Positions 18,996 through 47,975 of a DNA stretch of 64,000 bases are shown here, piece by piece. Position 1 is the first letter of the stretch; each line of letters begins with the position of its first letter. The translations under genes were made by a program, and so were the position numbers. Location of the stretch: the NCBI GenBank assembly GCA_963713605.1, contig CAVQMO010000001.1, positions 640,001-704,000 of the forward strand, in the 5' to 3' direction. The DNA comes from an uncultured Nitrososphaerales archaeon. GTDB lineage: Archaea > Thermoproteota > Nitrososphaeria > Nitrososphaerales > Nitrososphaeraceae. Below the pieces are notes generated by a model that had not been told where the DNA came from, did no database searches, and saw nothing but the letters and a program-made list of their open reading frames with translations.

Positions 18996-19140
18996 TCACA
19001 AGTCATCATGTGAATTTGTTTCTTTAACGAGCGATTCCTCTCCATTCTCTATGGCAGTCCGTAATGATATGATTAATTTGTTATGGCATGGATGGATAAC
19101 GACCACTCCATTTCGATACTCTAAAAGTTCCTTCTGCTGC
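18996..19140 (-). mobile_element. Terminase-large-subunit-like remnant A (C-terminal)
   Basis: KELLEYRNGVVVIHPCHNKLIISLRTAIENGEESLVKETNSHDDL aligns with NPTLHNLIVSLRTAV..LDKQQTSHHD at 36231-36467. Confidence 0.7.
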
Positions 19141-19668
19141 TTCAGAAGATAGTGATATCCTGTTATGATCTATGACGCCATTCGCCCGTGCGTGCTCCAA
19201 AGCTAAAAATTCCGTGGTCACTGTCAGTTGTCCATGTTACAGTTGCATTTCCCTCTGCAAAAATCCCGGTGTAAGTACAATCTTTAATGGGAGCGAAGTC
19301 TAGGTTGAGAGTTGCACTTAACATAACGCTTATTCCGATTAGTCCCTGAGGACATGACGTACGGCTGGGGGCACTTACGGCAAGTCGGCTTCGCATACAT
19401 ACGGCAATGATAATATTAGTATGGACATCACTGAAATTTAACGAGGAATCTAGGCAGATCAACGACATAACGCTATGCAAATCCTATTATAATACGCTAG
19501 CTGCTAATTACGAGAATCCTGGAGGATTGAGAGCTCATAGTGAATGATGTGATGTTCGTTGCACCCTTTTCTAAAAGCACGTAGACTCAAATGGATAGCG
19601 ACGTTCAAGGTAAATAGAAATTTCTTAACAATAAACCTTATTAAAATCTATGATAATCAACTTTTGGA

Positions 19669-20091
19669 TTGAATGTGTTCACAAACCTAAACATGTATTC
19701 TCTGGGTTTTAGTGCTTTGATAGTGCTTGCAGCCTTATTGATCACGCCAAATTACATGCTATCAGTTCATGCTCAGCTGGTCTATATGGATGAGGTTGTA
19801 GAAGTCAAGATTTCAAAGGGATCTTCAGCTATTAATAATACTCAATTCTATGCACCTCCTGAAGTTCAAGTAGCTGCTGGTAGCAGTATCAAATGGACCA
19901 ATGATGACAATGTCATTCATACGGTAACCCAAGGCAAGCCGTCAGAAGGTGCAAATTCTACAGGGTTTAATTCAGGTCCAATCCAGCCCGGGGGCACATA
20001 TGTGCACTTTTTTGATGAAAGCGGTGCAGTCGATTACTACTGCACTATCCATCCGCACATGATAGGAAAGGTTATTGTAAATCCGTACTGA
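19669..20091 (+). CDS. Plastocyanin/azurin-like cupredoxin, secreted
   Basis: WTNDDNVIHTVTQG and YYCTIHPHMIG type-1 Cu ligands, N-terminal signal/TM segment. Confidence 0.92.
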   Translation: MNVFTNLNMYSLGFSALIVLAALLITPNYMLSVHAQLVYMDEVVEVKISKGSSAINNTQFYAPPEVQVAAGSSIKWTNDDNVIHTVTQGKPSEGANSTGFNSGPIQPGGTYVHFFDESGAVDYYCTIHPHMIGKVIVNPY

Positions 20092-20409
20092 GTGGACACG
20101 ATAAAAAGTTCAAGGGGGGGAGAGAAATGAGTAAATTGTGAACTGCGGATTATATCTACTGGCTGGCACAGGCGAAATCATGTTAGACGCCGCTTCCAAT
20201 ACTTTGACTCAACTTTAGCAAATGCATGACCCCCTAACGAATATTCACAAATCAGTTGCAGACCTATGTTTGAAGGCCGCTGGTATGCAAATGGGAACTA
20301 CAAATCATCCAGCACATTGCGATTCGTCCATGATTTGGAACTAGGTTCACAATCCGCAACAATTTCTAGTTGTTGTATAAGAATATCTGGCACCTTCTCT
20401 GCATCCTGG

Positions 20410-20754
20410 ACAGATCCCTGATGTGGAAAGAGATGGGCCAGATGAAAAAGGCGAGGCTAACTGCTGGGGCAAGGTAACAAGTGACGCCGCAAATGATAAC
20501 GATGGTGATGGACTAGCACCTGGTGAGTTCGGTCAACACGCAGCAAATCCAACAGGTGATGATGACAACGACACGCCAAGGGAAGGAGTAGGAAACTAAT
20601 ATGAGGATCATCCAAGTGACCATGCTGACACCGTAGGTCCAAGGTTCGGCTCCGATGAAGAATGTACAAATGACTGGCACAACTTGGATCGATGGGAGAC
20701 CATTCAAACAATCCAAAAGGTGGCGATAATAATGACAGTACTCGTGGCGGTGTA
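20410..20754 (+). pseudogene. Disrupted small acidic His/Cys-containing protein
   Basis: ANCWGKVTSDAA...GEFGQHAANP...TPREGVGN*YEDHPSDHADTVG...C; in-frame TAA, no clean start. Confidence 0.45.
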
Positions 20755-20859
20755 GGAAATCAGGACGAAGATCTATAGAGGATTATTTTATCGTGATGGC
20801 AGCAGGGCCACTAACTCTCTTTTTTATGCATTTTTAATGGAATATGTCATGCAGGGTTT

Positions 20860-20941
20860 GGTGAAGGAATGCTAGATAAGGAATCATCTTCACATGATGA
20901 CCTCTGATTCATTCAGGATGTCGTTAATGTTTTGGCATTGA
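20860..20941 (+). mobile_element. Terminase-like remnant B (extreme C-terminus)
   Basis: GEGMLDKESSSHDDL.DSFRMSLMFWH*, same tail as remnants A, C, D and F. Confidence 0.75.
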
Positions 20942-20969
20942 AGAAAGGCTAAATATTCTGAGTGGTTGA

Positions 20970-21269
20970 ATGAATTTAGTTATGTCGGCCTCAGGGAGTT
21001 ATGTAGCCCCCGAAGAGAGGGAAAGAAGGCTACGCGAACTTGCTAATAGACTTATTGATGAAGAGCGAGTTGAACACGATACCGTGAGTCAAACAAAACG
21101 CGAGAATGCAAATATCAAGCAGGATTTGACCAGGGAGTTTTTGAAATTCATAAAGATTAGTGAAGAATGTGAAATGGATCGTGCCATATTAGAGGCAGTT
21201 GTTTACAAGAACATTGCTGAAGAAATACATACTGCTCTGAAAAAGTTTGATAATGTGGAAACCTGGTAA
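20970..21269 (+). CDS. Small hypothetical protein downstream of a terminase remnant (similar to 47217-47513)
   Basis: 99-aa ORF; YVAPEERERRLRELANRL and IAEEIHTALKKFD resemble segments of 47217-47513. Confidence 0.65.
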   Translation: MNLVMSASGSYVAPEERERRLRELANRLIDEERVEHDTVSQTKRENANIKQDLTREFLKFIKISEECEMDRAILEAVVYKNIAEEIHTALKKFDNVETW

Positions 21270-21303
21270 GGGATTACAAGAAGTTTTAGAAAAAGGTAAG
21301 AAA

Positions 21304-21522
21304 ATGAAATGGAAGATAAATGAATTGACACAAATGTCAGGGAAGGGAGGCATATGCGGTATAGTAAATTGCTTCAACAAGCCTGCTGAGCCAACCACTC
21401 AATGTAAAAAATGCACCAATTATTACTGTTCAGAACATTTTCCCTCTCACCTTGACATATTACCAGACGGGGACTTTGAGTACGCTAGTTCAAATGAAGG
21501 TCTAGAACGCTCTATGGATTGA
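21304..21522 (+). CDS. Small zinc-binding protein (AN1/B-box-like Cys/His pattern)
   Basis: C-x4-C...CKKC...YC.EH...H; ATG at 21304 preferred over the ORF-track start at 21247. Confidence 0.65.
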   Translation: MKWKINELTQMSGKGGICGIVNCFNKPAEPTTQCKKCTNYYCSEHFPSHLDILPDGDFEYASSNEGLERSMD

Positions 21523-21523
21523 C

Positions 21524-21575
21524 GTTACTAGTTCAAGAGCAACAAAGTCCTAAGCGTGAAATCGCTTGCGATATG
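21524..21575 (+). repeat. Dispersed GTTACTAGTT...palindrome repeat, copy 1
   Basis: gttactagttcaagagcaacaaagtcctaagcgtgaaatcgcttgcgatatg. Confidence 0.75.
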
Positions 21576-21683
21576 ATGCGATTTGTGGGGCTTTTTAAAC
21601 CGCTTATTGATGCTAGAATGATTATAGATAGGATTTGCTATGTGAAGCTAGTACTCTAGATAGTCTTTTTAAGAAATCAGTAC

Positions 21684-22340
21684 ATGTATTACTTTGCATT
21701 GAATATGAAAGAACATTATTTGGTGATGAAACGCTGTGAATTCAAGACTGCAATGGCGCTACTCTTCAGTTCTCTATGCTTGTTCACTTCTGGGCCAGCA
21801 GGCTTTTTGTCAGTTGCAGTAGCACAAGAAGAAGTCGAGTCTATTCCTGGGAGTAATTTGGAAGCTGTCCGCTGTGAGCCAATGACGGGTAATGTTACTC
21901 TTCCTTCTGCAAAAGAGGACGTTCTTCCACCTAACATGTATGTGATCTACGGAGATAGAACATATCAAGGAGAGCTGTCGCAATCCAAATACAGAGAAGG
22001 TGAAACATTTGGCAATCTTGACATTCTTCCAGAAAATGTTAGTTCAGATCTCCCAGCTGAGGCTGTAGAGATAATAAAAGATACGTGCGCACAGTTCGTT
22101 GTAGTGGGAACTCCTAGGACCTTGCCACCTGATAGTCTGGATATATCTGCCTACGCGATTAATGGCACTTCTGTTGCTGTGCTAAATGCTACGGAAGAGG
22201 ATGCAAGTACATTTAGAATTAACTTGCCCATAGGAACATACGTACTTTTGACTTCAGCTACTTGGATTCCCTCCTCTGCAAACGAATATGTCACCGGCTA
22301 TGTGATATACAAATTTCTAGCTAATGTCACTGAGAAGTAA
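21684..22340 (+). CDS. Secreted hypothetical protein
   Basis: 218-aa ORF with signal-peptide-like segment and beta-rich mature region; start uncertain. Confidence 0.7.
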   Translation: MYYFALNMKEHYLVMKRCEFKTAMALLFSSLCLFTSGPAGFLSVAVAQEEVESIPGSNLEAVRCEPMTGNVTLPSAKEDVLPPNMYVIYGDRTYQGELSQSKYREGETFGNLDILPENVSSDLPAEAVEIIKDTCAQFVVVGTPRTLPPDSLDISAYAINGTSVAVLNATEEDASTFRINLPIGTYVLLTSATWIPSSANEYVTGYVIYKFLANVTEK

Positions 22341-22509
22341 GAGTGTTGGAGCTAGTAAGATTCTATACGAATTAGATAGACAGGTTATGCATTTGGCACC
22401 GGTTGAGTTGATAACAAAGCTGTGGAGGCAGGACTAGTCTATCGCACCGATTTATTTTTCGAAACGGCAATTTAAGCTCAAAAACATTCTGGGGTGACAG
22501 ATTCTTTCT

Positions 22510-22837: not shown

Positions 22838-24335
22838 TTATTTTCCAGACAATTCTCTTCTTATTCTGGCAAGTACATCTTTCATCTGTTCCTTAGTTTC
22901 TTGGTATCCATCTTGAATTAACTGTTGGATTGTAGTTTTTGAAAAGTCAAATGTCTTATTTGAAATAGTGTGACTGTCATTCTTTCGGTTCAAACGAACA
23001 ACAAAATCAACATCTACGTTAGCCTTAATTAAATCCTCAAACCTAAAATGCTTCCCAGTGGCAAGATAGACTGCCTTGGTTTCTTCCTTCAGAGTCTTTT
23101 GCAGGACCTCTTTGCTCACACCATTTTCTTCGGCTAATTTAATGAGAGTTTTGGCTAGGCTTATGAAATCAGACACTAGAACTGCAACATTCTCGTCAAA
23201 GGCTGTTCGGTCATGGAATATGATATCATTCTTTCTATCAACAACACCGTCATAATCTGAAGGAAGGTAATCTTGTTTGGCTGGATGAAGATTTATTATG
23301 CCGTATCTCAGTCTGGGTATGTTCTCTTCTAGTTTCCTCACTTTATGCCAATATTCCCGATGAGCAAGTACGGTCTGTCTTAGTGGAGTATTAACTAATA
23401 GCCCACCATCCCAGAAACTGCGTAAGCTCGCTATTGCCATTCGTAGAAGAAGAAGAAGGCCTAATATTGTCTCCAGTATCTGCGTTGTCGTCTTGCGCTT
23501 CACCGACCAAAACACGGTTTTCCACATTTAGTCTAGTATAGTCATAATTTACCGGAACTGAACAGCTTGCCAAGACGAAATCTGCCTTAATGCCATCGTC
23601 GTATCTTATGACATGTTCATATCCCTCTGTATTCTCCTGATCATTCTCGGAACGACCAAATTTCACTCTACCGTATTTCCCATATTCTGATTTCCTAGTT
23701 CCATCCTCTTTTTCATAACTATCAAAAACCACAGGCGTAAGCTCCTGTACATCCACAGCAACTAGCAAGAGCCTTGGTTCGTTATTTTCGTAGCTTGTGG
23801 AAATAGGAAATTTTGCAAACTTTTCTAGGCTTTCCTTTAATGGTCTGTTGTCATAGATGTACCACGTATTTGATGGATCAAAAAACCTATGGTCTAGCAA
23901 GGGCGTCTTAGGTACAAATACGTTAGGAACTCCCTTCAAAATAAATTCCTTAGTGCTGAAATATCTTCTGGCTGATTCTCCAGATGCAATTCGTCTATCT
24001 AATTTACGCCAAGAATCCCAGTATGAGGTAAAGTAGGGAATGTTTTCAACAGATGGTTGTGTAGAAAGGTATTCCCAAAAATCGACAAGCCTTTCACTTG
24101 ATCCTTCCCATGTTTTATTTTCCTTTACATAGCTTACCAATAAAGCGGCATTTATCGCGCCTATTGACGTTCCAGATACGATATGAAATATTGGCTCGTT
24201 TTCCCTGCCTTCTGTTCTAAAGTATGCTGAAAGATCCTCATTGATAGCTTTGTAAGCACCTGCTTCATATGCACCAAGCGAACCCCCTCCTTGAAATATT
24301 AGAGCTCTGTTGACGCTGGGTTTCATAAATCTCAT
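22838..24335 (-). CDS. Patatin-like phospholipase, apparent frameshift near 23435
   Basis: QGGGSLGAY, GTSIG nucleophile elbow and FWDGG catalytic Asp, split over ORFs 23391-24335 and 22838-23527; colinear with 38556-40064. Confidence 0.92.
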
Positions 24336-25832: not shown

Positions 25833-26738
25833 TTACCTGCCATCAAAAGAGATCTCCTGCCTATGCCTAATGAATCGAAGGAAAATGAAAATGAATGGCA
25901 AAGAAGCCGAACCATACGCAATTTGAATGGGTAACTTGGAATTTAGCGCCAATCCTAGAACTAAGTACATCGTAAACATAACGCAAATGATACCCATAAC
26001 AACATACTCCCTTGTTATCAAAAGAAATCTGTCTACATCAAAATGACGGTAGTGAGTTGAATGGTGGATAACTGGCATTATGAACATAACTGTTGCTACC
26101 GTTACCGCATAAAGTGCTGCCAAGAGGATCATGCTATCAGAAAATTGAAAGTATGATGGAGGGCTCACTGCGATATTCAAGAGAAAACCAAAAAAAATTG
26201 AAGAAGCTGCTCCTAATATTTGACCCCAACGCAAACCCGCACCCACTTTATCATAGGGCTCAGTAGATGAACTTTTAGTGAGATTAGTGGGAGCATACCT
26301 ATAGAATCGAATGAAAATAAAGATGAAAGGTAAGGAAGCTAAACCATATGCAATCTCATTTGGTAGCTTGGAATGTAGCGCCAATCCTAGACCTAAGTAC
26401 ATTGCAACCATTATGCAAAAAATACCTATCAAAGTGTACTTCTTGATTTTTAAAAGGAATTTCTCCACATCAAACTGACGATAGTGAATGAGATGATAGA
26501 TAACTGGTATTACGAACATAACTGTTGCTACTGTCATTGCATATAGTGCTGCCAAGAGGATTATGCTATCAGAAAATTGAAAGTATGATGGAGGGTTCAC
26601 CGCGATATTCAGGAGAAAACCAAAAAAAATTGAAGAAGCTGCTCCTAATATTTGACTCCAGCGCAAAGATCCACCGACTCTATCATAGGGCTCAGTAGAA
26701 GACCGTTTTATGGGATCGTCATCCGCTTGAGATGGCAT
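25833..26738 (-). CDS. Membrane protein with two tandem ~150-aa domains (DUF6328-like)
   Basis: SSTEPYD.VG..LRW.QILGAASSIFFGFLLNIAV.PPSYFQFSDS occurs twice. Confidence 0.85.
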   Translation of the reverse strand: MPSQADDDPIKRSSTEPYDRVGGSLRWSQILGAASSIFFGFLLNIAVNPPSYFQFSDSIILLAALYAMTVATVMFVIPVIYHLIHYRQFDVEKFLLKIKKYTLIGIFCIMVAMYLGLGLALHSKLPNEIAYGLASLPFIFIFIRFYRYAPTNLTKSSSTEPYDKVGAGLRWGQILGAASSIFFGFLLNIAVSPPSYFQFSDSMILLAALYAVTVATVMFIMPVIHHSTHYRHFDVDRFLLITREYVVMGIICVMFTMYLVLGLALNSKLPIQIAYGSASLPFIFIFLRFIRHRQEISFDGR

Positions 26739-26985
26739 TCGAGGATACCGTGTCTATTATATGATAACAATATAAACCATGATAAATGTGAATTCTTGCT
26801 TTCCTAGCGAAAGCAACTGATTTTTTTCAAGCTAATAATGCAATCACTCTACTTGTGTATTATTAATTTTACAGTGTAAGATTGAAATAATTCTGCGTTG
26901 TGGCTATGCCCAAATTTTCAAGATAAGGAAAGTTCTGTTTTGTACCTCTAGGAAATCTAACTTCTAATAACTTTCTGGTTGTGTA

Positions 26986-27439
26986 TTAGTGTGTTTTTTT
27001 GAAGAATAGAAGGAAAATAAAGATGAATGGCAAAGAAGCCAAACCATATGCAATCTGTATTGGTAGCTTAGAATTCATCGCCAATCCTAGACCTAAGTAC
27101 ATCGCAACCATTAAGCAAAAAATACCTAACATAGCATACTCCTTCGTTGTCAAAAGAAATCTCTCTACATCTAACTGGTGATAATGAGTCGAATGGTGGA
27201 TAACTGGCATTAAGAACATAGCTGTTGCTACTGCTACTGCATAAAGTGTCTGCCAAGAGGATTATGCTATCAGAAAAATGAAAGTATGATGGAGGGTTCA
27301 TTGAAATATGTAGGAGAAAACCAAAAAAAATTGAAGAGGCTGGTATCAATACAATCACCCAATCTAGATTGGAAGCAACCCTAGAATAGCGTTCAGTGGA
27401 TGAACGTTTTACAGGATCATCATCTGATCTAGAAGACAT
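26986..27439 (-). CDS. Single-domain paralog of 25833-26738, apparent frameshift near 27250
   Basis: ASSIFFGFLLHISMNPPSYFHFSDSIILLA / FLMPVIHHSTHY...SKLPIQIAYGLASLPF. Confidence 0.8.
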
Positions 27440-29223: not shown

Positions 29224-29758
29224 TAGAGTATATGTAGTTAATATACTTTCAAAATGGAAATTTTAGTATGTCAGTTATGGTTTAACTCCTTGGGCCTCTT
29301 CCACTTGGCCCAGGCGTTGGAGCGGGTCGACATATTCGGGTCGGCTGAGGCGATACACCATTCTCTGCACTCACGCATTTAACGGTTGACAAGTGAAATC
29401 AGCAAACCAAAAACAGGTTGGCCAGTCATCATCATTCAACCTATTCCATTTCCATTTCCATTTCTGTCAGTCACTTAGACAGTAAAAAAAGAAGGGTTTA
29501 GTTTGCGGCGATTAAAGCGTTGGTTCCTTGAGTGCCAAAGCTAAGATGTAATACCTGCGGAGCACTGGTATTCGCTAATGGTTTGCTATCACAAAACATA
29601 ATCCGGTCTCATTGATTATAATCCAGAAGATGCTGACAACATATGAATATTCAATATACACTATGCATATGCTGAACAAGGACAAGAATCAGCCTTACCC
29701 CATCTTGTCTGTAATTAAAAGTTTATCTTTAGGCGGATTAGTAATTAAGAATGAAAAA

Positions 29759-30517
29759 TTGTTTAAAGTCATTTTGCCTTCAGGCCGTACCGTGGCACCT
29801 GCATTGATAGTTGTAGATATGCAGAATGGTTTCGTGTCAAAGGGAGGATCGTATGATAAAATTGGTATGAACACCTCTCTGTATAGAGAGATTATTCCAA
29901 AGCTTAAGGATTTAATTGAATTCTGCAGGAGTATGGGTATTCCTGTCTTTTACACCGAAGCAGTAAAGGAGGAAAGTGGCATTGACATTCTTACAAACGT
30001 CCATAACATCTTACCCAAATCAAGACAGGAGAGATTGAAAGTACCCATATGTATTAGAGGTACTTGGGATGGAGTAACAATCGATGAACTAAAACCTAAA
30101 GAGAAAGATCCTGTAATTATAAAACGAAGGGATGGTGCTTTCCTAGATACAGATTTCCGGATTATGCTTCAGAGTCAGGGCATTAATCTCTTGGTATTTA
30201 CTGGAATTGATACTTCTATTTGTGTAGAGACTTCATTAAGGGATGGATTTAACTTAGGTTACGATGTGATGATAATATCTGATGCTACGGCGTCCGGGGA
30301 CAAGAGACATTATGAAACAACTCTGGAAAGAGTAAGAGATTACTATGGATTAGTAATGAATACTGAGAAGTTTAAAGAAGCGGTCGGGAAACTAGATAAA
30401 ATGCGAAAGGGTGAAGCCAAAGCCTTTATGGAGTCACAAGAACAAGCCGAAGCCTTTTTAGAGGAATTTAATTTACTAGACCCTAGGAAATTTGCTGCTG
30501 AACAAGTCAACCTTTAG
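29759..30517 (+). CDS. Isochorismatase-family cysteine hydrolase (amidohydrolase)
   Basis: VVDMQNGF (Asp), IIKRR (Lys), GIDTSICVETSLRDG (Cys) triad; start set at TTG 29759 by comparison with paralog 48655-49425. Confidence 0.92.
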   Translation: MFKVILPSGRTVAPALIVVDMQNGFVSKGGSYDKIGMNTSLYREIIPKLKDLIEFCRSMGIPVFYTEAVKEESGIDILTNVHNILPKSRQERLKVPICIRGTWDGVTIDELKPKEKDPVIIKRRDGAFLDTDFRIMLQSQGINLLVFTGIDTSICVETSLRDGFNLGYDVMIISDATASGDKRHYETTLERVRDYYGLVMNTEKFKEAVGKLDKMRKGEAKAFMESQEQAEAFLEEFNLLDPRKFAAEQVNL

Positions 30518-30666: not shown

Positions 30667-30779
30667 ATGCTTGCACACGCAAAAGAACTTTTAGAACATC
30701 GAAATGGAATGATCGCTAAGAGGCTACCTGTATTGATGACTTGTTTGATTCATTCAGATTGTCGTTGATGTTCTGGCAT
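30667..30779 (+). mobile_element. Terminase-like remnant C (C-terminal, internally deleted)
   Basis: MLAHAKELLEHRNGMIA / EATCIDDLFDSFRLSLMFWH. Confidence 0.7.
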
Positions 30780-30782
30780 CGA

Positions 30783-31112
30783 CTACTTCTGCTTGGCTCC
30801 TTCGAGGAATGCTCGGGGATCAAAGATCACCTTAACCGAACTTATTTTCCTATCGTCATCGACATGATACCACACGCACACAAGTTGAGAATTCAACTCG
30901 TGGAGAATGCAGACATCGTTGCTATCTGCGAACTCCTTCTTGATGTCGAATTTGACTAACTGCCCAGTCTCGTACAGGTGTAGATTATATTTCAGGTATG
31001 GTTCAGCCCTATCGAACGAATTAAGAGGCGACACGTACGATACATTATCCTTCAAATAGCCTCTGGCCGATTGAAAGTCTCGGCGCTCCGTAGCCTCTGT
31101 GAACTCCAGCAC
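30783..31112 (-). CDS. SnoaL/NTF2-like protein
   Basis: F.EA.ERRDFQSARGYLKDNVSYVSPL...ISSVKVIFDPR pattern; open frame extends further upstream, start uncertain. Confidence 0.8.
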   Translation of the reverse strand: MLEFTEATERRDFQSARGYLKDNVSYVSPLNSFDRAEPYLKYNLHLYETGQLVKFDIKKEFADSNDVCILHELNSQLVCVWYHVDDDRKISSVKVIFDPRAFLEGAKQK

Positions 31113-31280: not shown

Positions 31281-31581
31281 TTCACATGCAATGCGTAATG
31301 CGTAATCCTGATATGTGACAGGAAACGCTCCCTGGACAAAGAAGCAACTAGTCATGACGATCTCATGGATGCCTTTCGGATGTCTCTGCTGTTCTGGCAC
31401 TAAAAAAAGACGCGTGAGGTTTGTCCAGTGGACGTTTGGCTGCTGCAACTGTAACATTTTCTGCTGGTGAAGAAATCGGCATTTATACCTCGATATTTGT
31501 AATTTACAGTGGTGTTTCCAACGATACTCCGTTTTTTTCATTGTGGATACTAGACAACTTTATTAGTTCTACACTTGTAAC

Positions 31582-32759
31582 ATGGCGATAACTTTGTCTA
31601 AACCGCCTCGCTCTGGCCGGTCCAATTTCTATCATGACCTCGTAACTGTAGATTTTCATCAATCACAGATCAAATGGGGTGTAAAGTTTGCTACATTATT
31701 AATAATTCCAATAGTATTAGGGCTGATCACTGGCCATGTTGCTGAGGCATCTTATATCTGTTTCACAGCAGCGTTTGTGCTGGCAGCAGATCAGCTTCGT
31801 TCTAATGGTCCACGAACACGCTTCCTGCTGATAGTTTCCATACTATACGCATTAATTTTCGCCATCGGCATGGTCATAAGCATAAGCAGTAACCTTGTAG
31901 TACCGCTCTGTGGCCTTGGATTATTCATCATATCATTCTTCGCGGTATATCCAAAAACGTTCGGGCTCGTGCTTTTTGCCGGCTTAATGTTTATCATTGC
32001 AATTGCGTCTCAAGGTGTTACCCTCAGCTCTAGTTGGCCAGAGCTTCTTGCTAATTTTTGTAGGTGGACTGTGGGCTACAGTAGGTGGCATCATCTTTCT
32101 GCCCCGTAAAACCACGAAGCAACAACGTACTGTAACAGCAGATCCTATCCAAGAACAGCCTCAACCTCATGACCTGGCAAGACAGATTCAGACCTCTGAC
32201 AAGCAATCTATCCATTCACTCTCAATATTTCCAATATTCATTCGTTTTTGCGATTACAGGTGCAATTGGCATGCTGATTGTTCAATGGTTTAAGCTACCT
32301 GATGGAGACTGGGTTTTGGCGACCGTAGTAGCAATATTAGCCCCAGCATTTACTGATATTGCTCTTACTCTTAAGAGAGGGCAGGAGGAAGTCTACCAGG
32401 AGGGACTCTTAAAAGTTGTCCACCGTATTATAGGTACTATCATAGGTGCGGTAACCATCCTGATAATAATTGATAATGTTCATAACATATGGTTACTGTC
32501 TTTAATATTATTCGTTTACTTAAGCGCTTACCTCTCATTCGTAAAGATAAAGAACTACGCCTTTAAGACGATCTTTACGGCCGGTATGGCACTTCTTTTC
32601 CTTGAAATCATACACCCAGCACCAGACCCGACAGCTGTATCTTTAGAAAGGATCCAGAACGTTTTCATAGGTTGCCTTCTCTCCCTAGGTGCAACTAGCA
32701 TTTGGATCGCATTCTCTCGGAAGAAATCTAACTTACCTTTAGGGCGTAAAGGGGAATGA
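31582..32759 (+). CDS. FUSC-family membrane protein, two apparent frameshifts (~32020, ~32170)
   Basis: Hydrophobic N-terminal helices and FUSC-like W...TV.AIL.P....HRIIGTIIG...ERIQNVFIGCLL across three overlapping ORFs. Confidence 0.78.
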
Positions 32760-32946
32760 AACTTGGTTCTATTTTAGACGGTTCAAAAGAAAACGATGGC
32801 AATAACGATTAACTTGTTAGCGAATCATCAAAAGAGATCAAGAGAAACAATGTACAACCATACTTAACATATTACACTGCCTGGATAGATCAGTTTTTGA
32901 CTGTACCATTTTTTAGGTACCCAAACAAATCAGGGATAAGGTAATA

Positions 32947-33057
32947 ATGAAGTTGTTGTCGCTCGCTTGTCTGTCAGATAGGCATGAGTATTGTTCCCTT
33001 AGTTTTGCCGGCGGTACTGGTTGTCAATGCAACTGTCATCCTAAGAATCAGTATTAA
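32947..33057 (+). CDS. 36-aa Cys/His-rich microprotein
   Basis: MKLLSLACLSDRHEYCSLSFAGGTGCQCNCHPKNQY*; below the ORF-track cutoff. Confidence 0.55.
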   Translation: MKLLSLACLSDRHEYCSLSFAGGTGCQCNCHPKNQY

Positions 33058-33075
33058 AAAAAGATGGAAGTCTAG

Positions 33076-33125
33076 GTTACTAGTTAGAGTAACAAACTCT
33101 CACGAATGATATCGCTTGCGATATC
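33076..33125 (+). repeat. Dispersed GTTACTAGTT...palindrome repeat, copy 2
   Basis: gttactagttagagtaacaaactctcacgaat followed by perfect GATATCGC-TT-GCGATATC at 33108-33125. Confidence 0.75.
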
Positions 33126-33140
33126 CTTTGATACATAAGG

Positions 33141-33439
33141 AGCCTAGACAAGGAAATGACTTCATACAGTGATTGCTTTGGTTCTTTCAGATTGTCTTTG
33201 AGTAGGTTGAACGAGAATACAACCTCAGGTACTTAGGTAAGGTTGGCAACGTATTCCACACGCTAGACATAGAGGCAGCAATATGTACGGAGGGCAAGGA
33301 AATGACGGACATCTACAAGTACCATGGTAGGAAGAAGCATGGGAATAGATGTGATCTGGGGGATACTTCGAAGTTTGTCATTGTCATTACCCAATACAGA
33401 AACAGAAAGGTGGAAGTATTCTATGCAGAGAGCTTCGAG
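33141..33439 (+). mobile_element. Terminase-like remnant D (C-terminal piece followed by a mid-gene piece)
   Basis: SLDKEMTSYSDCFGSFRLSL then EREYNLRYLGKVGNVFHTLDIEAAICT...GRSMGIDV.WGDTSKF.IVITQYRN, near-identical to part of 36573-37076. Confidence 0.85.
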
Positions 33440-34271: not shown

Positions 34272-35003
34272 ATGCAAAATGCTCCCAGAGCAACTTACAT
34301 CATGAAAGAAATGGTAAAGCACCTTTTTCACTTGGTATTAATCAATGCTCTATCCTTATTCGTTGTTCGCAAAAGAACAAAATCAGGGGCAGAGTACAAT
34401 AACAAGTTAATTGGACAGCCGACTAACTACTTTAAATCTAGCGCCGCCGTCATCGGCATGTTGTTTGATGTTACTGCAATTTTGATTGTAATTGCATTCG
34501 ACGTAAACAGAGACATAATGACAGTAATTGCTGCTGTATTCATTTGTATTGGGACGGGGCGACAGATCTTTGCCTCGGCACTGGATCTCGTAACAACGAA
34601 CCTGAACGCCTTCTTGTCATCTTGGGCATCAACTCTTCTATTGCTTGCAAGAAATAGGCTGATGGTGACGACGACAGATTGGCGTTCCATAGAAAGGCGA
34701 ATCGAGCTGATACTCATGAGCAGGGGGCTTGAGTATAATTTGCCTGTTAAATTTGATGGGGTAAAACCAGAATCTCAGCAAAAATTATTAGAGTACTTGG
34801 ATGAGCATAAATGGGAGTTAGAGTATCAACAGGCTATTACAGATGATGATTCTAGCTGCCTTGCATTTTTTGAGTACGCAACTAAACAGATGAGAAAGAA
34901 GTTGCAGATATATGGTGAACTGGAAGACCTACAGCAAAGTAGTGGAGGCGTTAACGCAATAATCCTGATAGCAGTGGGAACGTTGATTTGGTTAATTTCA
35001 TAG
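34272..35003 (+). CDS. Hypothetical membrane protein (paralog of 44827-45312)
   Basis: N- and C-terminal TM segments; real start may be ATG 34458, just downstream of a tttaaat TATA-like box. Confidence 0.7.
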   Translation: MQNAPRATYIMKEMVKHLFHLVLINALSLFVVRKRTKSGAEYNNKLIGQPTNYFKSSAAVIGMLFDVTAILIVIAFDVNRDIMTVIAAVFICIGTGRQIFASALDLVTTNLNAFLSSWASTLLLLARNRLMVTTTDWRSIERRIELILMSRGLEYNLPVKFDGVKPESQQKLLEYLDEHKWELEYQQAITDDDSSCLAFFEYATKQMRKKLQIYGELEDLQQSSGGVNAIILIAVGTLIWLIS

Positions 35004-35038: not shown

Positions 35039-35262
35039 TTAGAGTATATGAGATAACGTGCGATCGCTGTGCTCTAGCATCTGCTTACAGTGTGAAAGTA
35101 TGTTCTTGTGCTGCTTACTAAACGGTACAGTAATCACAAACATGTTCTGTTGTAAGAACCGCAGATCGTATACTGATGGATAGTTTTTCTTGTAAAATGA
35201 TATCTGTTGCTCATAGTTGGTATCCTCATCTACACTATCCTTCAATACCCTGATAAAGGAAC
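35039..35262 (-). mobile_element. Terminase-like remnant E (nuclease-domain segment)
   Basis: SFIRVLKDSVDEDTNYEQQI...MFVITVPFSKQHKNILSHCKQMLEH bridges DGANPEVIRELK (remnant F) and MLAHAKELLEH (remnant C). Confidence 0.65.
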
Positions 35263-35612
35263 GTCCATGTACCGAAGTCTGCGGGTGCATCTGCGTTGTA
35301 TACTGACTGTTCCATCCATTTAGCCCGCCTTCTATGCTCCTAGCATCATAGCCTTTCTCAGAGAGGATCTTGGCAGCGCCCATAGACCTATTGCCATGTC
35401 CACAAAATGTAACTATTTGTTTGTCTTTTGGAATCTGTTTTAATATCTCAGGAGAGGACAAATCGCCTATCGGAATTACAGGGGTATCGAGATACCTGTC
35501 ATAGGAAACTTTCATCCAAAATAAAAATATCTTCTCCGCTGTCTATCTTTTTCTTTAGTTCTGTAGGTTTCAGTTGATGATTATCGTTATCCTTGTCATT
35601 CCCAGAAGTCAT
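35039..35612 (-). CDS. Rhodanese-like protein, disrupted near 35517, with a terminase fragment in frame at its 3' end
   Basis: LKPTELKKKIDSGEDIFI / IPKDKQIVTFCGHGNRS..AA.IL..GY.ARSIEGGLNGW. Confidence 0.75.
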
Positions 35613-35823: not shown

Positions 35824-36061
35824 CTGGAAAAGGAAAAATGTCACAATCAGAAGGCTATTACGAACAAGTACAAGCGATAATAAAGAAATACCTAAGCAAC
35901 ATAACTTGGGAGAAAATATGCGCTGAATTAAATAATTTGAATACTCCATTTAGTGATCAAGAACTGACCGAGAACGAGTGTGGAATGGATTATAAAAGAG
36001 ATACAATGGAGAATATCGCATGGAGATCGGTTTCTACATTCGATTTAGTTCGAATAATGAA

Positions 36062-36202
36062 CTAAGAATAAACATCTATGTCCTCATCTTTTGCATGCAG
36101 ACAGTCAATCATTTTTGAAGTAAGTGCATGCGCAGCATAAAACGCTAATAGAGCAAAATATCCTATAACTATTATACTAATAAGTTTAGCCATTCGACTC
36201 AT
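36062..36202 (-). CDS. 46-aa single-TM microprotein downstream of remnant F
   Basis: MSRMAKLISIIVIGYFALLAFYAAHALTSKMIDCLHAKDEDIDVYS*. Confidence 0.4.
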   Translation of the reverse strand: MSRMAKLISIIVIGYFALLAFYAAHALTSKMIDCLHAKDEDIDVYS

Positions 36203-36230
36203 ATTTCCAGAGGTACATTTTTAGTTACTT

Positions 36231-37170
36231 CTAATGGGTTACACGATGACACCATTGACCTATTATCAGGAATTGTTTTTTTGGAAGTTCATAATTACAT
36301 AAAGCAAGCCTAAACGAATCCAAGGTGTCATGATGTGATGTCTGCTGCTTGTCCAGCTTCCAATCATCTATCACAACTGCTGTTCTTAGTGATACGATGA
36401 GATTGTGCAAGGTTGGGTTTATCTTAATGAATCTCTTAGACATTAACGTATAAGTCCACTGTAGCATCTGTCTATGTCTTTTCTGGAAGTTGATTGGTAT
36501 TATCTGCCAACTGTTGCTGCTTCGTAAACCCCAGATCTTCTGCCTCCATAATAGTCGTGATACTCTCCTATTCTATTTTTTCAGCTCTCTTATTACCTCT
36601 GGGTTCGCACCGTCCACGTATATTTTAGTACAGTGGTGCCTCTGCTTTAGCTGCATGATTTGATTGATGATCTCGTTCATCAACGGTTTCTCGAAGACTT
36701 CTATTTTGTTGTTCCTGTATTGAGTAATAACGATGGCAAACTTTGATGTATCTCCCCAAGCCACATCAATACCCATGCTTCTTCCTATCATTGTACTTTC
36801 AGACCAGGCTATCATTTCTTTTCCTTCTTCTTGAGTGCATATGGCTGCTTCAATATCCAGAGTATGGAAGACATTGCCAACCTTTCCCAGGTATTTTAGA
36901 TTGTATTCCCTTTCAAATGATGGTGATTTCTGTGCTAGAGCTATCTCTTCCCTTGTGTAGATCTTGTTTGTGCCATATGTATAATCTAGGAATAACCGTT
37001 TGTATAAACAGGTATTCTCTGGTTCTCTTTCTATCTTTTCAAATAGACCTTCAGGAGCGTTAGGCGTTGACACCATAACAATCCAAGGATTGCTCTTGGC
37101 AATGTATCTCTCCGATACGTCTCGTGCATCTTGCTGCTGCCCTGGTGGAAAGAAATCAGCCTCATCCTCC
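36231..37170 (-). mobile_element. Terminase-large-subunit-like remnant F (Walker B to C-terminus)
   Basis: DEADFF (Walker B), VSTPN (motif III), FEREY, MGIDVAWG and IYVDGANP (RNase H-like nuclease), SHHDTLDSFRLA; frameshifted near 36570, N-terminus missing. Confidence 0.82.
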
Positions 37171-38555: not shown

Positions 38556-40064
38556 TTAATCAGACACGTAATTCTTTTCTCTGTTAATTTTTCTTAACCT
38601 GGCAAGTACTTCTTCCAATTGTTCTTTAGTTTCCTGGTATCCATCTTGAATTAACTGCTGGATTGTAGTTTTTGAAAAGTCAAATGTTTTATTTGCAATA
38701 GTATTACTGTCGTTCTTTCGCTGGAATCGAACAACAAATTCAATGTCGACGGCGATCGTTAATAAATCCTCAAACCTCCAACGCTTACCAGTGGCAAGAT
38801 AAACAGCATTGGTTTCTTCCTCTAGATTCTTTTGGATGACCTCTTTGCTCACACCATTTTCTTCGGCTAATTTAATAAGAGATTTGGCTAACTTTATAAA
38901 ATCAGCCACAAGAACTGCAACATTTTCATCATATCGTGTTCTGTCATGGAATATAATGTCATTCTTTCTGTCAACGACACCGTCGTAGTCAGATGGAAGA
39001 TTATCGTGTGTGCCCGGATGGAGATTTATTATGACGTATCTCAGTTTAGGTATGTCATCTTTTACTTTCTTCACTTGATGCCAATAATCCCTATGAGCGA
39101 GTATAGTCTGTCTTAGTGGAGTATTAGCTAATAATCCACCATCCCAGAAACTGCGTAAGCTGCTATTGGCATTCGAAGAAGCGGAAGGCCTATTATTATC
39201 CCCACCACCTGCATTGAAGCCTTGCTCTCCATCTACCAAGGTACGGCTTTCCACATTTAGTCTAGTGTAGTCATAATTTACTGGAACTGAACAGCTTGCT
39301 AAAACGAAGTCTGACTTAATCCCATCGTCGTATCTTATAACATATTCATGTCCCTCAATGTTCTCATGATCTTTCTCAGAACTACCAAATTTCACTCTAC
39401 CGTATCTCCCATACTCTGTCTTCCTGGTTCCATCCTCCTGTTCGTAGCTATCAAAAACCACAGGATAGCCTGCTACTTGCACATCCACAGCAACTAGCAA
39501 GAGCCTTGGTTCATTATTTTCGAGGCTTGTGGAAATAGGAAATTTTGCAAACTTCTCCAGGCTCTCTCTTAATGGTTTGTTGTCATAGGTATACCAAGTA
39601 TTAGAAGGATCAAAAAACTTATTGTCGAACACAGGTGTTTTAGGTACAAATACGTTTGGAACTCCCATAAAAATAGATTCCTTAGTGCCAAAATATCTTC
39701 TGGCAGATTCTCCAGAAGCAATTCGTCTATCCAATCTGCGCCAAGAATCCCAGTAGGACGTAAGGTATGGTATGTTATCAACAGATGGTTGTGTAGAAAG
39801 ATATTCCCAAAAATCGACAAGCCTTTCAGCAGACCCCTCCCACGTTTTATTTTCCTTTACATAACTTACCAATAAAGTAGCATTTATAGCGCCTATTGAC
39901 GTTCCAGAGATGATATGAAATAGCGGCTCATTTCCCCATTCTGATCTGACGTATGCTAAAAGATCTTCATTGAGAGCTTTGTAAGCACCTGCTTCATATG
40001 CACCAAGCGAACCTCCTCCTTGAAGTATTAAAGCTCGGTTGATGTTATGTTTCATAAATCTCAT
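38556..40064 (-). CDS. Patatin-like phospholipase (intact)
   Basis: QGGGSLGAY, GTSIG, FWDGGLLANTP motifs. Confidence 0.95.
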   Translation of the reverse strand: MRFMKHNINRALILQGGGSLGAYEAGAYKALNEDLLAYVRSEWGNEPLFHIISGTSIGAINATLLVSYVKENKTWEGSAERLVDFWEYLSTQPSVDNIPYLTSYWDSWRRLDRRIASGESARRYFGTKESIFMGVPNVFVPKTPVFDNKFFDPSNTWYTYDNKPLRESLEKFAKFPISTSLENNEPRLLLVAVDVQVAGYPVVFDSYEQEDGTRKTEYGRYGRVKFGSSEKDHENIEGHEYVIRYDDGIKSDFVLASCSVPVNYDYTRLNVESRTLVDGEQGFNAGGGDNNRPSASSNANSSLRSFWDGGLLANTPLRQTILAHRDYWHQVKKVKDDIPKLRYVIINLHPGTHDNLPSDYDGVVDRKNDIIFHDRTRYDENVAVLVADFIKLAKSLIKLAEENGVSKEVIQKNLEEETNAVYLATGKRWRFEDLLTIAVDIEFVVRFQRKNDSNTIANKTFDFSKTTIQQLIQDGYQETKEQLEEVLARLRKINREKNYVSD

Positions 40065-44358: not shown

Positions 44359-44467
44359 GCATCGAAGTAGAGTAGTTATCCTTGCTCCCTTTTGCACTCT
44401 GGTCAATCCTGAGCGTTATCGACTTAATTGTAGTAATAAGATTTACATTATTCTCATCATCGTTGCT
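44359..44467. repeat. Dispersed ~120-bp repeat, copy 2 (copy 1 at 18284-18405)
   Basis: Direct sequence match with a short internal deletion. Confidence 0.85.
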
Positions 44468-44826
44468 GGCTCGTAAGGATCATATGATTCAAACTTTTTC
44501 GGATCTAGTCCAATTCAATCATGATACGTCATCCCATGCTTACATACAACATCTTTTTAAGAAGTATGTAGCCGAAAATAAACCATCGTGCAAAATGCTT
44601 CCGGAGTAATTTTCATCGTGAAAGAGATGGTAAAGCACCTTATTAACTTGCTATTTGTCAATGCACTCTTCATATTCGTTGTTCGCAAAAGAACAAAATC
44701 AGGAGCAGAGTACAATATCAAGTTAATTGGACAGCCGACTAACTACTTTAAATTTAGCGCCCCATCATCGGCATATCGTTTGCGGTTATTGCAATATTAA
44801 TTGTATTTGTATTCACTCAAAACGTA

Positions 44827-45312
44827 ATGATAGTAATTGCTGCTGTATTCATTTCTCTTGGGACGGGGCGACAGATCTTTGCCTCGGCACTGGATGTCGT
44901 AACAACGAACCTGAACGCCTTTTTGTCGTCTTGGACATCAACTCTTCTATTGCTTGCAAAGAACATGCCGATGGTGACAACGACAGATTGGCGTTCCATA
45001 GAAAGGCGAATCGAGGTGATACTCATGAGCAGGGGGCTTGAGTATAATTTGCCTGCTAAACTTGATGCGGTAAAACCAGAATCTCGGCAAATATTATTAG
45101 AGTATCTGGATGAGCACAAATGGGAGTTAGAATGTCAACAGGCTATTACAGATGATGATTCTAGTTGCCATGCATTTGTCCAATACGCAGCCAAACAGAT
45201 GAGAGAAAAATTTCAGATATATGATGAACTGGAAGAACTACAGGAAAGAAGTGGAGGCGTTAACGCAGTAATCCTGATAGCATTGGGAACGTTGGTTTGG
45301 TTAATTTCATAG
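44827..45312 (+). CDS. Paralog of 34272-35003, 5' part disrupted
   Basis: GTGRQIFASALD..TTNLNAFLSSW...TTTDWRSIERRIE shared; duplicated DNA spans about 44466-45318 versus 34160-35010. Confidence 0.7.
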   Translation: MIVIAAVFISLGTGRQIFASALDVVTTNLNAFLSSWTSTLLLLAKNMPMVTTTDWRSIERRIEVILMSRGLEYNLPAKLDAVKPESRQILLEYLDEHKWELECQQAITDDDSSCHAFVQYAAKQMREKFQIYDELEELQERSGGVNAVILIALGTLVWLIS

Positions 45313-45329
45313 TTTTGTATTACGGCTGT

Positions 45330-45443
45330 AGACGGCTGGAGCATGTAGGTCTCCAGCTCGTCAATGATTTCGTCGCTCTCGGCTTCGTCGAAGCCCTCGA
45401 TGTAGAGGATCTGGCCGCCCAGTTTCCGGATGCACGCGGCCTT
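45330..45443 (-). pseudogene. High-GC TauD/TfdA dioxygenase-like fragment
   Basis: RVHPETGR / ILYIEGFDEAESDEIIDELETYMLQP; GC-rich codons unlike the flanks. Confidence 0.6.
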
Positions 45444-45493
45444 AGATCAGGAGTAGTGATAGATAGTCGGCTGAAGTGTCTGCTCCCAACCGA

Positions 45494-45524
45494 CTCACGA
45501 CTTTGTTACTCTTGAACTAGTAAC
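45494..45524 (-). repeat. Dispersed GTTACTAGTT repeat, copy 3 (no palindrome)
   Basis: Reverse complement reads gttactagttcaagagtaacaaagtcgtgag. Confidence 0.75.
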
Positions 45525-45789
45525 TACCAACTAACTAATACCAGAACTGAAGAAACATTACCCCCATTACTCATCGTCAACCCTAAATCTCCCCGCCATC
45601 GTATAGTTTCAGGGCGATGGCCATCGGCGCAGAAAATAATTTCGGCATGTTTATCAACGCCGGTTAGCATGGAGTGATTCATATAATGCAGTTACAAGCC
45701 CCTTACTCAAAAGAAACTACAGATCAGACTAATTCTGTTTGTAGAGGTATTAGACATCAATATTAGAGACACAGCAAATGGAGATGTCG

Positions 45790-47051
45790 ATGAGTAGTGG
45801 CGCAGAAGAATCGGCATTGAAAGGCAGGCTATTATAGGCTAATGCTCTATGCAGGGTTATTCGGTGGTCTTTCCTCTCTTATAACTACTGGATACATCAC
45901 ACTCTACAACCAGGGTGTCAACTTTTTGGGCAGCATAGCGTATTCCTATTTAACATTAACTTTTGGCCGCTTATTCTGTTGGGAGTAGCCGGTGTTTTCA
46001 TTGGCCTTGTCATCAAGTTCGTTGGGCAGCATCGGAGGACTGGGAGTTGCTCAAACCCAATACGCGCAGACCGGTGGCCTCAACTACCGTAACCTACCAA
46101 GTATCCTTCTTCAAGGATTTATAGCATTATGGAGTGGTGCAGCAGTTGGTCCGGTGGGAACGCTTGTTTTTCTTGCAGGTGGATTAGGTACCTTTGTCTC
46201 CGAACGACTTAAGCTTCAGAAGGACGACATACAAGTATTAACTTACAGTGCCATTGCAGGGGCACTTGGCGGTTTCTTTGGATCTCCGATACATTGGAGC
46301 CGTTTATGCAGTCGAATACATGTTGATCAAGGAGCTGAAATTGGTATCGTCACCTCATCCCTGGGCTCATAGCAGGAGCTGTGGGTTATGGTGTCTACTT
46401 TGCGATTTTACATACGTCATTTCTAGGTGTATACAGCTTCCCTGACTTTGCCTCCCTTCGTGTAGTCGACCTGGTCTGGGCATTGCTGGTGGGAATGATT
46501 GCGGCACTAATCGGGACCTTGTTCAAGTTGGTATTCGGACTTGTCCATCGTGTTTTTGGCCGACTTAACAAGAGACCAGTCATCCTTGCCATCATAGGCG
46601 GCTTATCATTGGCTTGATTGGTTCATTTCTTCCACTAACACTTTACTCTGGCCAGCACCAGTTGCTAGAAATCATTCGAAACCCGGCTTCATTTGGTATA
46701 GGGATACTACTGCTGATGATGCTGGTAAAGATTTTACTTACAGGTACATCGTTTGCTACAGGATTTGAAGGGGATCCAATGTTTCCATTACTATTTATAG
46801 GAGGTACGCTAGGACAGGTCCTATCAGAAATTCTAACATTCATTCCACAGGGTGTGGGTGTACTTGCAGGTATGGCAGGTGTCGCATGTGCTTTCCTCCC
46901 GATTCCCTTATCAGTTGCTCTCCTACTGGGGTTATTCGGAGGACAGACTGACCTAATACCAGTCATTGTCATTGGAGCAGTAACAGGTTTCATTGTGTCC
47001 AAGGCACTCACCCCACTGCTTCCCAAACAGCCAGGTAGTAACAAACAATGA
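45790..47051 (+). pseudogene. ClC-family paralog of 16983-18269 with several frameshifts
   Basis: Colinear pieces in ORFs 45992, 46248, 46381 and 46614; GPEGP is replaced by GPVGT. Confidence 0.8.
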
Positions 47052-47216
47052 TATTGAGTGACGACGTGGCATGAACCTTTAAAGCAGTAAGTCTCCAACT
47101 ACAGTAACATCCATTCTAGATATAACTACCATTACAAGATTACGATATCTAAGAACATAACTAACCATCTAGATGCAACAGTTAGTCGGCATAATCTTAT
47201 ATTGATGAATAAAGTT

Positions 47217-47513
47217 TCAATATTGGCGACACAGTATCCGTAAGAATGGGTGAAACATTACCTCTACAGCCTCTCGTCTTTTCGCCTCCAGCGTTTTCAA
47301 GACATTATTTATTGCCTCTGCTATAAGCCTATGACCTTCTGCGTTGCCTACTTGGTCGCCATGGAAATAGCCCTCAGCCAATGCTGCTTGCCTATAGAAC
47401 TCTAGTGATAAATATCCCATAGTGTGTGTCATATCCGAACGGTTGATATTGTCGAGGAGATCGCCCAAATTTCTAAGTCTCTTTTCTCTCTTATCCGCCG
47501 GCTTGTAAGACAT
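47217..47513 (-). CDS. Small hypothetical protein similar to 20970-21269
   Basis: MSYKPADKREKRLRNLGDLL...HRLIAEAINNVLKTLE; own ATG at 47513. Confidence 0.6.
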   Translation of the reverse strand: MSYKPADKREKRLRNLGDLLDNINRSDMTHTMGYLSLEFYRQAALAEGYFHGDQVGNAEGHRLIAEAINNVLKTLEAKRREAVEVMFHPFLRILCRQY

Positions 47514-47549
47514 AGCAATCACTATCCAATATTCAAATGTTGCAATATT

Positions 47550-47975
47550 TATTGTTAGAAACAGGCTCTTCAGTCGCTTGATTAGTTCGATGGCTAACTC
47601 GATGCGGGGGCCTGTAACTATACACATCTGTGATCCTTTCAGATTATCATCCCGTAAGCATAACCACGACATATAACGTAGCATCAACTCAGTAATGCCT
47701 AATCCAGTAAGCTTTCTTTATCCATACCTGCTTGTGATTCTGTAGTGTGTACTATACTGGCTTTTCGTAATCGAATAATGGATAAGGTTGACCATTCTTT
47801 TGATATGATATGGTTTAGCGTTCTGATATCTTGTGGATTATACCAGTTATAGAATGGCAAACCTTTCAGTAGTTCAAACTGCCCTAATGTTGAACTACCA
47901 GGCTTTTGGTCGTACTTATCTAGTATCTTTCCAATCCTATTACATTAATCAATATTCTCTCACGTTTCTGACATG
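47550..47975 (-). mobile_element. Terminase-like remnant G (N-terminal ATPase part)
   Basis: LKGLPFYNW, PLFDYEK, HKQVWIKKA/TGLGITE (variant Walker A), MCIVTGPRIELAIELIKRLKSLF. Confidence 0.72.

Follow-up and report, generated by a model that had tools for sequence, protein, structure and literature searches.

The window analyzed here is a 64,000-nucleotide stretch of DNA (contig C1, positions 640001–704000) from an uncultured Nitrososphaerales archaeon of the family Nitrososphaeraceae, and it contains a scattered series of remnants of terL, the gene for the large terminase of head-tail viruses. The genome, labelled G000, comprises 4.09 Mb in 15 contigs and is 87% complete with 4.5% contamination. 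From the letters alone, at least seven terminase-like remnants had been predicted, at positions 18996, 20860, 30667, 33141, 35039, 36231, and 47550, and terL-derived sequence is indeed present at all seven. The pieces are defined by DNA profiles built from relatives (nhmmer), a tail-specific profile, six-frame motif searches, and tblastn, with the reversed genome as the chance control (0 matches with every profile). Their total is nine, including a tail at 31321–31402 that had not been listed; eight were found by the DNA profiles, and 33139–33200 was added by the tail profile. Pfam, PHROG, and NCBIfam recognize none of the terL fragments in the window.

In the host genus the protein comes in two nuclease-domain subtypes, A with the terminal sequence CNYELPK and B with the terminal sequence FWH. 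Subtype-B 3' tails lie at 18998–19134 (– strand, end damaged; nhmmer E 3e-20, tail profile E 1e-14), 20858–20940 (+ strand, DNA and tail profiles; stop codon present, one frame change), 30667–30782 (+ strand, internal deletion; tail profile 30706–30779, E 2e-12, start placed by eye), and 31321–31404 (+ strand, in frame to the stop codon; profile E 9e-19). At 33139–33439 (+ strand) the profiles place a subtype-B tail, 33139–33200, joined directly to a subtype-A mid-gene piece, 33207–33439. An open reading frame (ORF) at 35039–35515 (– strand) carries a rhodanese-like domain in frame with a subtype-B nuclease piece (35064–35263, E 4e-37) and is, judged from its reading frame, a possible new chimeric gene. 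The largest remnant, 36267–37167 (– strand), is a subtype-A terL running from Walker B to the end (residues ~183–486), 81% identical to an intact relative and interrupted by one internal stop and small indels. A 5' remnant (residues ~1–140) at 47533–47975 (– strand; 47533–47932 covered by the DNA profile) is fused to a small gene, 47235–47531, that has three other copies in the genome. The six C-terminal tails of the window, one more than the five diverged versions first counted, share 53–71% pairwise identity (15 pairs) and therefore derive from different terL copies, not from parts of one gene; two overlapping mid-gene pieces are 74% identical. The motifs DEADFF, VSTPN, GID..WG, DGANP, and ..D..DSFR were all recovered by six-frame search. 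The Walker A motif, reported as KKATGLG.TE, is not in one frame, as a frame change near 47713 splits it into KKA and TGLGITE; intact relatives have KKATGLG[IV]T. Contigs obtained in two independent soil studies span two of the junctions, 33053–33203, upstream of the B–A join, with 0 differences and 36010–36414, the stop-codon junction of the largest remnant, with 1 difference.

That the family is a large terminase, as had been predicted, is borne out by intact relatives and by the structure prediction that had been suggested as a check. All four tested match PHROG family phrog_2 (E 1e-15 to 1e-22), and an AlphaFold model of one of them (pLDDT 85) has as its top Foldseek matches the terminases of T4 (gp17, E 1.9e-19), Sf6 (gp2), HK97, and D6E, with E values of 2e-19 to 1e-11 over both domains and a whole-chain TM score of only ~0.37. 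The predicted fold joins an N-terminal P-loop ATPase to a C-terminal RNase H-like nuclease. Walker A (K-x-[TR]-G-x-G), DE[AS]D, and aspartates 316, 372, 470, and 473 are invariant in nine of nine intact proteins, and by analogy we take these aspartates to be the catalytic nuclease set. A helicase assignment, prompted by a Pfam DEAD match below the cut-off, was overruled by the PHROG and fold matches. A sequence-only search of the PDB with TerL gave no match, and NCBIfam did not recognize two intact TerL proteins.

In a search of 41 genomes, 21 of the 24 others from the family have matches, and none of the 16 from other families does. Open terL frames of ~490–516 amino acids are present in several family genomes, and the named records with relatives are Nitrososphaeraceae or Nitrososphaerales metagenome-assembled genomes (MAGs). 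TerL relatives at 29–46% identity are also encoded on 45 viral contigs, and among 30 genes taken from nine of these, capsid matches were found in four contigs, a portal match in one, and minor-head matches in two. The KKATGLGIT form of Walker A is common to the capsid-encoding viral relatives, so the unusual motif is compatible with packaging. In a quick tree of 52 rows, whose deep branches are weak and which contains long-branch joins, subtypes A and B each make up a clade without viruses (SH support 99 and 100), and two TerLs of cellular origin fall together with viral TerLs (L038 with L043/L078 and L015 with L040/L041; L-numbers denote relative loci or viral contigs, and C-numbers contigs of G000). 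The TerL of L037 (genome G016) likewise groups with viral TerLs, and paralogous genes lie behind it, one with a weak head/attachment PHROG match; this locus could represent another kind of element or what is left of a provirus. In nine intact terL genes (36 pairs), synonymous sites are saturated while replacement sites are conserved (pS 0.69–0.94 vs pN 0.11–0.34), which argues against a relic and shows that the intact, capsid-less terL is under purifying selection.

In the intact loci of relatives, a helix-turn-helix (HTH) gene of 150–180 residues immediately precedes terL. These loci also have a tyrosine integrase and often a primase or replication gene, and the genes that follow the terL stop codon are variable and unrelated to one another. 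Across 78 family loci, many of them short contigs, tblastn found the HTH gene, which is TerS-like (TerS being the small terminase), at 38, the integrase at 15, a replication gene at 10, a homolog of a putative head protease at one, and a capsid or portal gene at none. Tyrosine integrases are present in L025, L036, and L038, a D5-like replication module in L038, and a PriX domain in L029; an 884-residue gene in L025 has no family match and resembles a primase only by eye. PHROG searches with 72 neighbors from 24 hand-picked loci gave no capsid, portal, or tail gene. The 'head and packaging' matches in L090 (a 68-residue TerL-family stretch and a protease-family gene) and a TerS match in L143, which lies in a transposase, were left out of the count of virion genes. 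The capsid and portal profiles built from the closest viruses were silent in all 25 family genomes, versus 4 and 3 matches, respectively, in 16 control genomes from other families; searches with phrog_9232 and with the L043 capsid candidate were silent everywhere, controls included, and hence are uninformative. The lack of capsid and portal matches, noted for the window, also extends to the whole 87%-complete genome. The follow-up suggested at the time, copy number and intact loci in this genome and its relatives, led to 120 terL segments here and, in relatives, to small capsid-less integrative elements, not proviruses.

The HTH gene is probably terS, based on its position directly upstream of terL, its architecture (an HTH domain with a helical oligomerization hairpin, which fits TerS), and the weak top PDB matches of its model, the G20c and P74-26 small terminases (E 0.17–0.34). 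Its profile matched genes upstream of viral terL at a weak probability of 42%, and no PHROG TerS family matched it. The gene order of the elements mirrors that of the capsid-encoding viruses. A cysteine-rich gene often follows terL (L087:5257–5883, L097:1323–1772, L115:11444–12091, L142:11503–11985, and L038:10089–10547), the position at which viruses L043 and L079 have a small cysteine-rich gene, and this likeness is positional. In the capsid-less element at L130:1256–2931, two genes lie between terL and the integrase, the second of which matches the putative head-protease gene of related viruses and is a candidate helper-interference gene. L115 has a gene for 1792 residues upstream of terS-terL with DNA polymerase PHROG matches (3474–8849) and a second terS-terL in tandem. 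The cargo behind terL at L090:11532–20580 resembles a restriction or defense cluster, with a helicase-nuclease and unknown PHROG families.

In the G000 genome as a whole, the DNA profiles define 120 non-overlapping terL segments, of which 85 reach the 3' end and eight the 5' end, and no intact copy was found in its 4.09 Mb. With the tail profile, the number of gene ends is 126 at a cut-off of E 0.01 and 112 at one of E 0.001, versus 20 terS and 24 integrase segments. Profiles of equal length, built only from relatives, match seven times for Walker A, five for Walker B, 5–11 for DGANP, and 35 (A) and 87 (B) for the tail, which rules out the 3' bias as a profile artefact. Homology among the tails ends at the terL stop codon, beyond which they fall into 88 downstream classes, 74 of them unique, and a few tails are exact duplicates whose flanks are shared as well. 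The first ORF downstream lies on the same strand in 53 cases, convergent in 53, and absent in six, and so is uninformative. Fifteen distinct in-frame tails differ mostly at third codon positions (0.28/0.12/0.46 by position, in a set chosen by its in-frame pattern, which favors a codon signal), and they were therefore captured from distinct working alleles. Tail lengths are continuous from 57 to ~250 nucleotides with no fixed 5' edge, and no shared RNA structure was predicted among the 15. A fixed attachment (att) site or a structured RNA in the tail is unsupported, given these continuous lengths, the free third positions, and the lack of a shared structure. The median remnant length is 99 nucleotides for B and 234 for A, as would be expected if B were the older wave.

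The tails are clustered, with 49 pairs within 5 kb versus 14 expected. They are also co-oriented, 41 of 49 neighbors within 5 kb pointing the same way compared with 15 of 32 at distances beyond 20 kb, and the co-oriented runs comprise up to eight tails. A tail lies ≤10 kb from 19 of 20 terS remnants (5.6 by chance) and from 14 of 24 integrase remnants (6.7 by chance). Coding density is 0.47 near tails and 0.61 elsewhere, and close paralogs make up 186 of 415 ORFs near tails (45%) compared with 657 of 3133 elsewhere (21%). Among genomes of the genus, 11 of 13 match one of the window tails, as do seven of 107 other family genomes sampled. Over 14 genus genomes the density of terL matches rises with estimated genome size (rho 0.78, the kin genomes not being independent). 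The repeated insertion and decay that had been predicted for this region holds as to independent, decayed copies; it is a genome-wide and genus-wide pattern and not specific to the region. Its polarization to terL 3' ends in co-oriented stacks goes beyond what had been observed.

All stages in the likely formation of such stacks, from whole terL copies in tandem to tail-cargo stacks, can be seen. L035 contains a tandem of two complete terL genes, of which the upstream copy has its HTH gene, and in relative loci a subtype-A terL is followed ~130 nucleotides behind by a B tail. In 48 relative loci, which were hand-picked from the 78 for a long terL that extends to its end and are not mutually independent, extra tails downstream of the intact terL number 14 on the same strand and one on the opposite strand (283 kb), while upstream there is one on each (212 kb). 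In the genome itself, four loci have 5' or internal integrase stubs ≤650 bp from a 3' piece of terL. Of the 24 integrase segments, 12 have a co-oriented terL piece ≤10 kb downstream, compared with two in the opposite orientation. C10:850575–890642 is a tandem-integration island with several terL tails: a tRNA-Met is followed by a tyrosine integrase, and the att-like tRNA 3' end recurs at eight places elsewhere. This 3' end with its adjoining bases is found five times on C10 downstream of the integrase, up to 932 kb, and once at 1020 kb, the rest being on C12 and C13. A tRNA-Lys with an integrase remnant is accompanied by six co-oriented tails.

The window shows the same arrangement of tails and putative cargo. 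A FUSC-family membrane gene, split in the assembly (31582–32759, + strand), lies behind the 31321 tail, and the tail plus this cargo (31332–32775) is 80% identical to C10:222655–224101, where FUSC follows a near-full-length terS-terL; the window copy is a trimmed version of this near-whole terS-terL-FUSC unit. A cargo gene without assigned function (34272–35003, + strand), convergent with the terL piece at 35064, has copies at window 44466–45317, C3:82032–82896, and C10:546662–547474 (87–89% identity), the last two beside other terL tails, so that it adjoins different tail alleles at three loci. A convergent SnoaL-like gene (30783–31112, weak Pfam match) directly follows the 30667 piece. Repeated DNA lies directly downstream of the 18998 tail (18454–18780, found at five other genome places) and, with small ORFs, downstream of the 20858 tail (20918–21564, + strand), where 21314–21564 has six further occurrences, at least four of which are about 2 kb or less from a tail. 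Paralog pairs for a CLC channel (16983–18269 and 45827–47051), patatin (22838–24335 and 38556–40064), and isochorismatase (29612–30517 and 48655–49425), along with DUF6328 repeats (25833–27439), lie among the remnants, and from their position within 16983–49425 are likely cargo. A third, broken patatin copy occurs at window 53093–55344, with a related block at C12:43148–44678, and window 61572–62749 contains repeats with 91–99% identity to other contigs, possibly insertion-sequence remnants.

Based on these data we now put forward a mechanism in which the fragments are the scars of many independent capsid-less terS-terL integrative elements, likely helper-packaged, that were stacked by tandem insertion and loss of their cores, and we assign to this reading as a whole a probability of about 60%. 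We hold its element-plus-decay part on its own with considerable confidence, while packaging in helper virus capsids is a reasonable expectation. Specifically, the HTH protein would act as TerS, and the TerS-TerL complex would dock on the portal of a helper virus so that element DNA is packaged in helper capsids. A new element would land beside an old one, by re-use of the att site or by recombination in terL (the data fit both, and either may apply), to give a core-terL-cargo-core-terL-cargo array. Deletions would then remove the inner core, from integrase to terL, and stop short of the cargo that is kept, leaving behind terL 3' ends and integrase 5' ends. Live elements would carry such tail-cargo stacks onward and thereby multiply both tails and cargo paralogs. 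It is likely that passenger genes stayed while the elements stacked up and decayed. Ku genes are present at C10:420787–421377 and C11:9462–10028, plus one fragment, and it is a speculation that Ku supplies non-homologous joins.

Several observations weigh against this mechanism. The 5' bias of the integrase remnants is mild (nine vs four), no att fragment was found between the six tails at tRNA-Lys, and only seven of the 112 tails are within 5 kb of an intronless tRNA. The drop from 87 B tails to five matches ~330 nucleotides upstream is steep, and a mechanism of greater specificity might be required to account for it. Around the intact elements no convincing att repeats were found and no pair could be fixed, and the TerS identity of the HTH gene is weak. 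As to packaging, the closest viral TerLs have 29–46% identity, no helper was found, and no element was found among the viral contigs; that collection is presumably selected for virus-like genes, which makes the absence a weak one.

The same elements could have decayed in the same way with a TerS-TerL that does not package at all and instead hampers viral packaging or cuts DNA during replication or transfer. This we consider improbable. The lack of elements among viral contigs and of a portal in the element would agree with it, as would the known phage-inducible chromosomal islands (PICIs), which are described as needing only TerS (de Sousa 2023, PMC10085698). However, the motifs of both the ATPase and the nuclease are conserved and correspond to those in the capsid-encoding relatives, whose gene order the element mirrors, and the L130 element has a homolog of a putative viral head-protease gene. 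Of the options in the original prediction, satellite-like, gene transfer agent-like, or non-packaging, the first fits best, and the second is unsupported because no head or tail genes were found.

A further explanation, which we likewise doubt, makes the terL 3' end a dedicated recombination target, either att-like or resembling the end of an integron cassette: incoming DNA would restore terL with a new end and push the old tail and its cargo downstream. This would account for the same-strand stacking downstream of intact terL, for homology that stops at the stop codon with 112 tails in 88 downstream classes, for the steep excess of tails over upstream profiles, and for one cargo gene beside different tail alleles. 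It also has a parallel in 14 thaumarchaeal elements reported in the 3'-distal parts of protein genes, with att sites down to 8 bp and insertion into other elements (Krupovic 2019, PMC6563490). What argues against it is that tail lengths vary continuously from 57 to ~250 nucleotides, third codon positions vary freely in the 15 in-frame tails with no common RNA structure predicted, and whole tandem copies and integrase-to-terL junctions exist.

Far less probable, and largely refuted, is that ordinary tailed proviruses or a gene transfer agent left these pieces behind as relics, an origin that has been proposed for NitKor-E1. TerL relatives are indeed encoded by true viruses that also have capsid or portal genes, two cellular TerLs (L038 and L015) group with viral ones, and MAG binning can drop proviruses, yet ~120 terL segments are accompanied by no capsid or portal match in the genome and none in the 78 loci, the intact capsid-less terL is under purifying selection, and subtypes A and B form their own virus-free clades. 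That a single shattered copy or an assembly or binning artefact produced the truncations is refuted, since, in spite of the contamination, the 16 of 44 broken host-like genes, and a few exact tail duplicates with shared flanks, the tails are only 53–71% alike and differ at synonymous sites, 11 of 13 genus genomes match a window tail, and independent contigs bridge two window junctions. The assembly probably does carry indel errors, because 16 of 44 host-like genes tested genome-wide have a frame change or stop, and such errors may explain some of the frameshifts in long terL copies; the truncations of terL are beyond what they can explain. Accordingly, the near-whole copy at C10:221244–222725 may be less damaged than it reads; the copy at C10:9769–11339 has ten frame-changing gaps. 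Split host-type genes occur across the window (e.g., 12447–13689, 22838–24335, and 31582–32759), where assembly indels are probable and real decay is possible. A search of sequencing runs by sequence words returned no run with half of the words, and there was no RNA run among those listed.

If terS-terL elements did stack up in this manner, the tails and their paralog-rich DNA would offer a route for the gene duplications that enlarge these genomes, and since tails are countable, oriented markers, the idea is directly testable. Duplication has been described as the main mode of genome expansion in Nitrososphaerales, strongest in g_TH5895 among others, in a study whose main text does not contain the word 'virus' (Sheridan et al. 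2020, PMC7603488), and terL pieces are present in named records of isolate TH5895. A more far-reaching version is that satellites of head-tail viruses with their own complete terminase are a main engine of genome expansion in soil ammonia-oxidizing archaea, the terL 3' end serving as an integron-style landing pad, each of the ~110 tails marking one cargo delivery, and much 'gene duplication' being re-import of satellite-borne paralogs; we regard this as a tentative idea that is rather unlikely in full. The family also argues against the published view of a terminase outside viruses as a relic. If our reading is true, head-tail virus satellites would be added to those of archaea, for which a recent preprint lists only satellites of spindle-shaped viruses (bioRxiv 10.1101/2025.02.15.638363). 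In the literature covered, outside which most subscription papers fall, nothing was found on multi-copy terL remnants in these archaea; the type of element has precedent, and for the polarized genome-wide scar field and its link to duplication-rich regions we found no prior description.

The closest precedent is NitKor-E1, a cryptic integrated element of Ca. Nitrosopumilus koreensis AR1 (Krupovic et al. 2019, PMC6563490), which by gene content is alike: TerS precedes TerL, a tyrosine integrase is present, further head-tail genes are lacking, and the host oxidizes ammonia. It was published as a single enigmatic element and likely relic, whereas here there is a multi-copy family, under purifying selection, with more than 100 polarized remnants in one genome. 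PICIs, including the Staphylococcus aureus pathogenicity islands (SaPIs), share the integrase, regulator, primase-replicase, TerS-like gene, and lack of virion genes, as well as accessory genes after the packaging gene (PMC10085698). They differ in that the element here has an archaeal host and its own conserved TerL, so that it has the integrase and primase-replicase of a PICI and not a TerS without its own TerL, and no capsid-morphogenesis gene was recognized in it. Capsid-forming PICIs (cf-PICIs) do encode both TerS and TerL, together with capsid and head-tail joining genes (PMC10085698), whereas no capsid or portal gene linked to terL was found here, which likewise separates the element from head-tail proviruses and gene transfer agents. 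Nor do the tails have the fixed boundary site of an integron-like cassette array, being continuous in length, free in synonymous variation, and without a shared structure. In archaea, pSSVx, pSSVi, and SRCEs similarly combine a replication module with an incomplete morphogenesis module, but they go with spindle-shaped viruses and AAA+ ATPases and not with head-tail terminases (Zhou et al., bioRxiv 10.1101/2025.02.15.638363). The tycheposons of Prochlorococcus (Hackl et al., bioRxiv 10.1101/2020.12.28.424599) combine an integrase, a replication module, and cargo; when they insert in tandem at tRNA genes, incomplete copies of the tRNA remain and genomic islands are reshaped. These elements encode TerS or a capsid gene, the PICI-like ones being described in that paper as without cargo, while here TerL is followed by cargo and the lasting mark is the tail of a protein gene. 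By analogy with these systems, we propose that the terS-terL element works like a PICI or a tycheposon and would be packaged by a helper virus.

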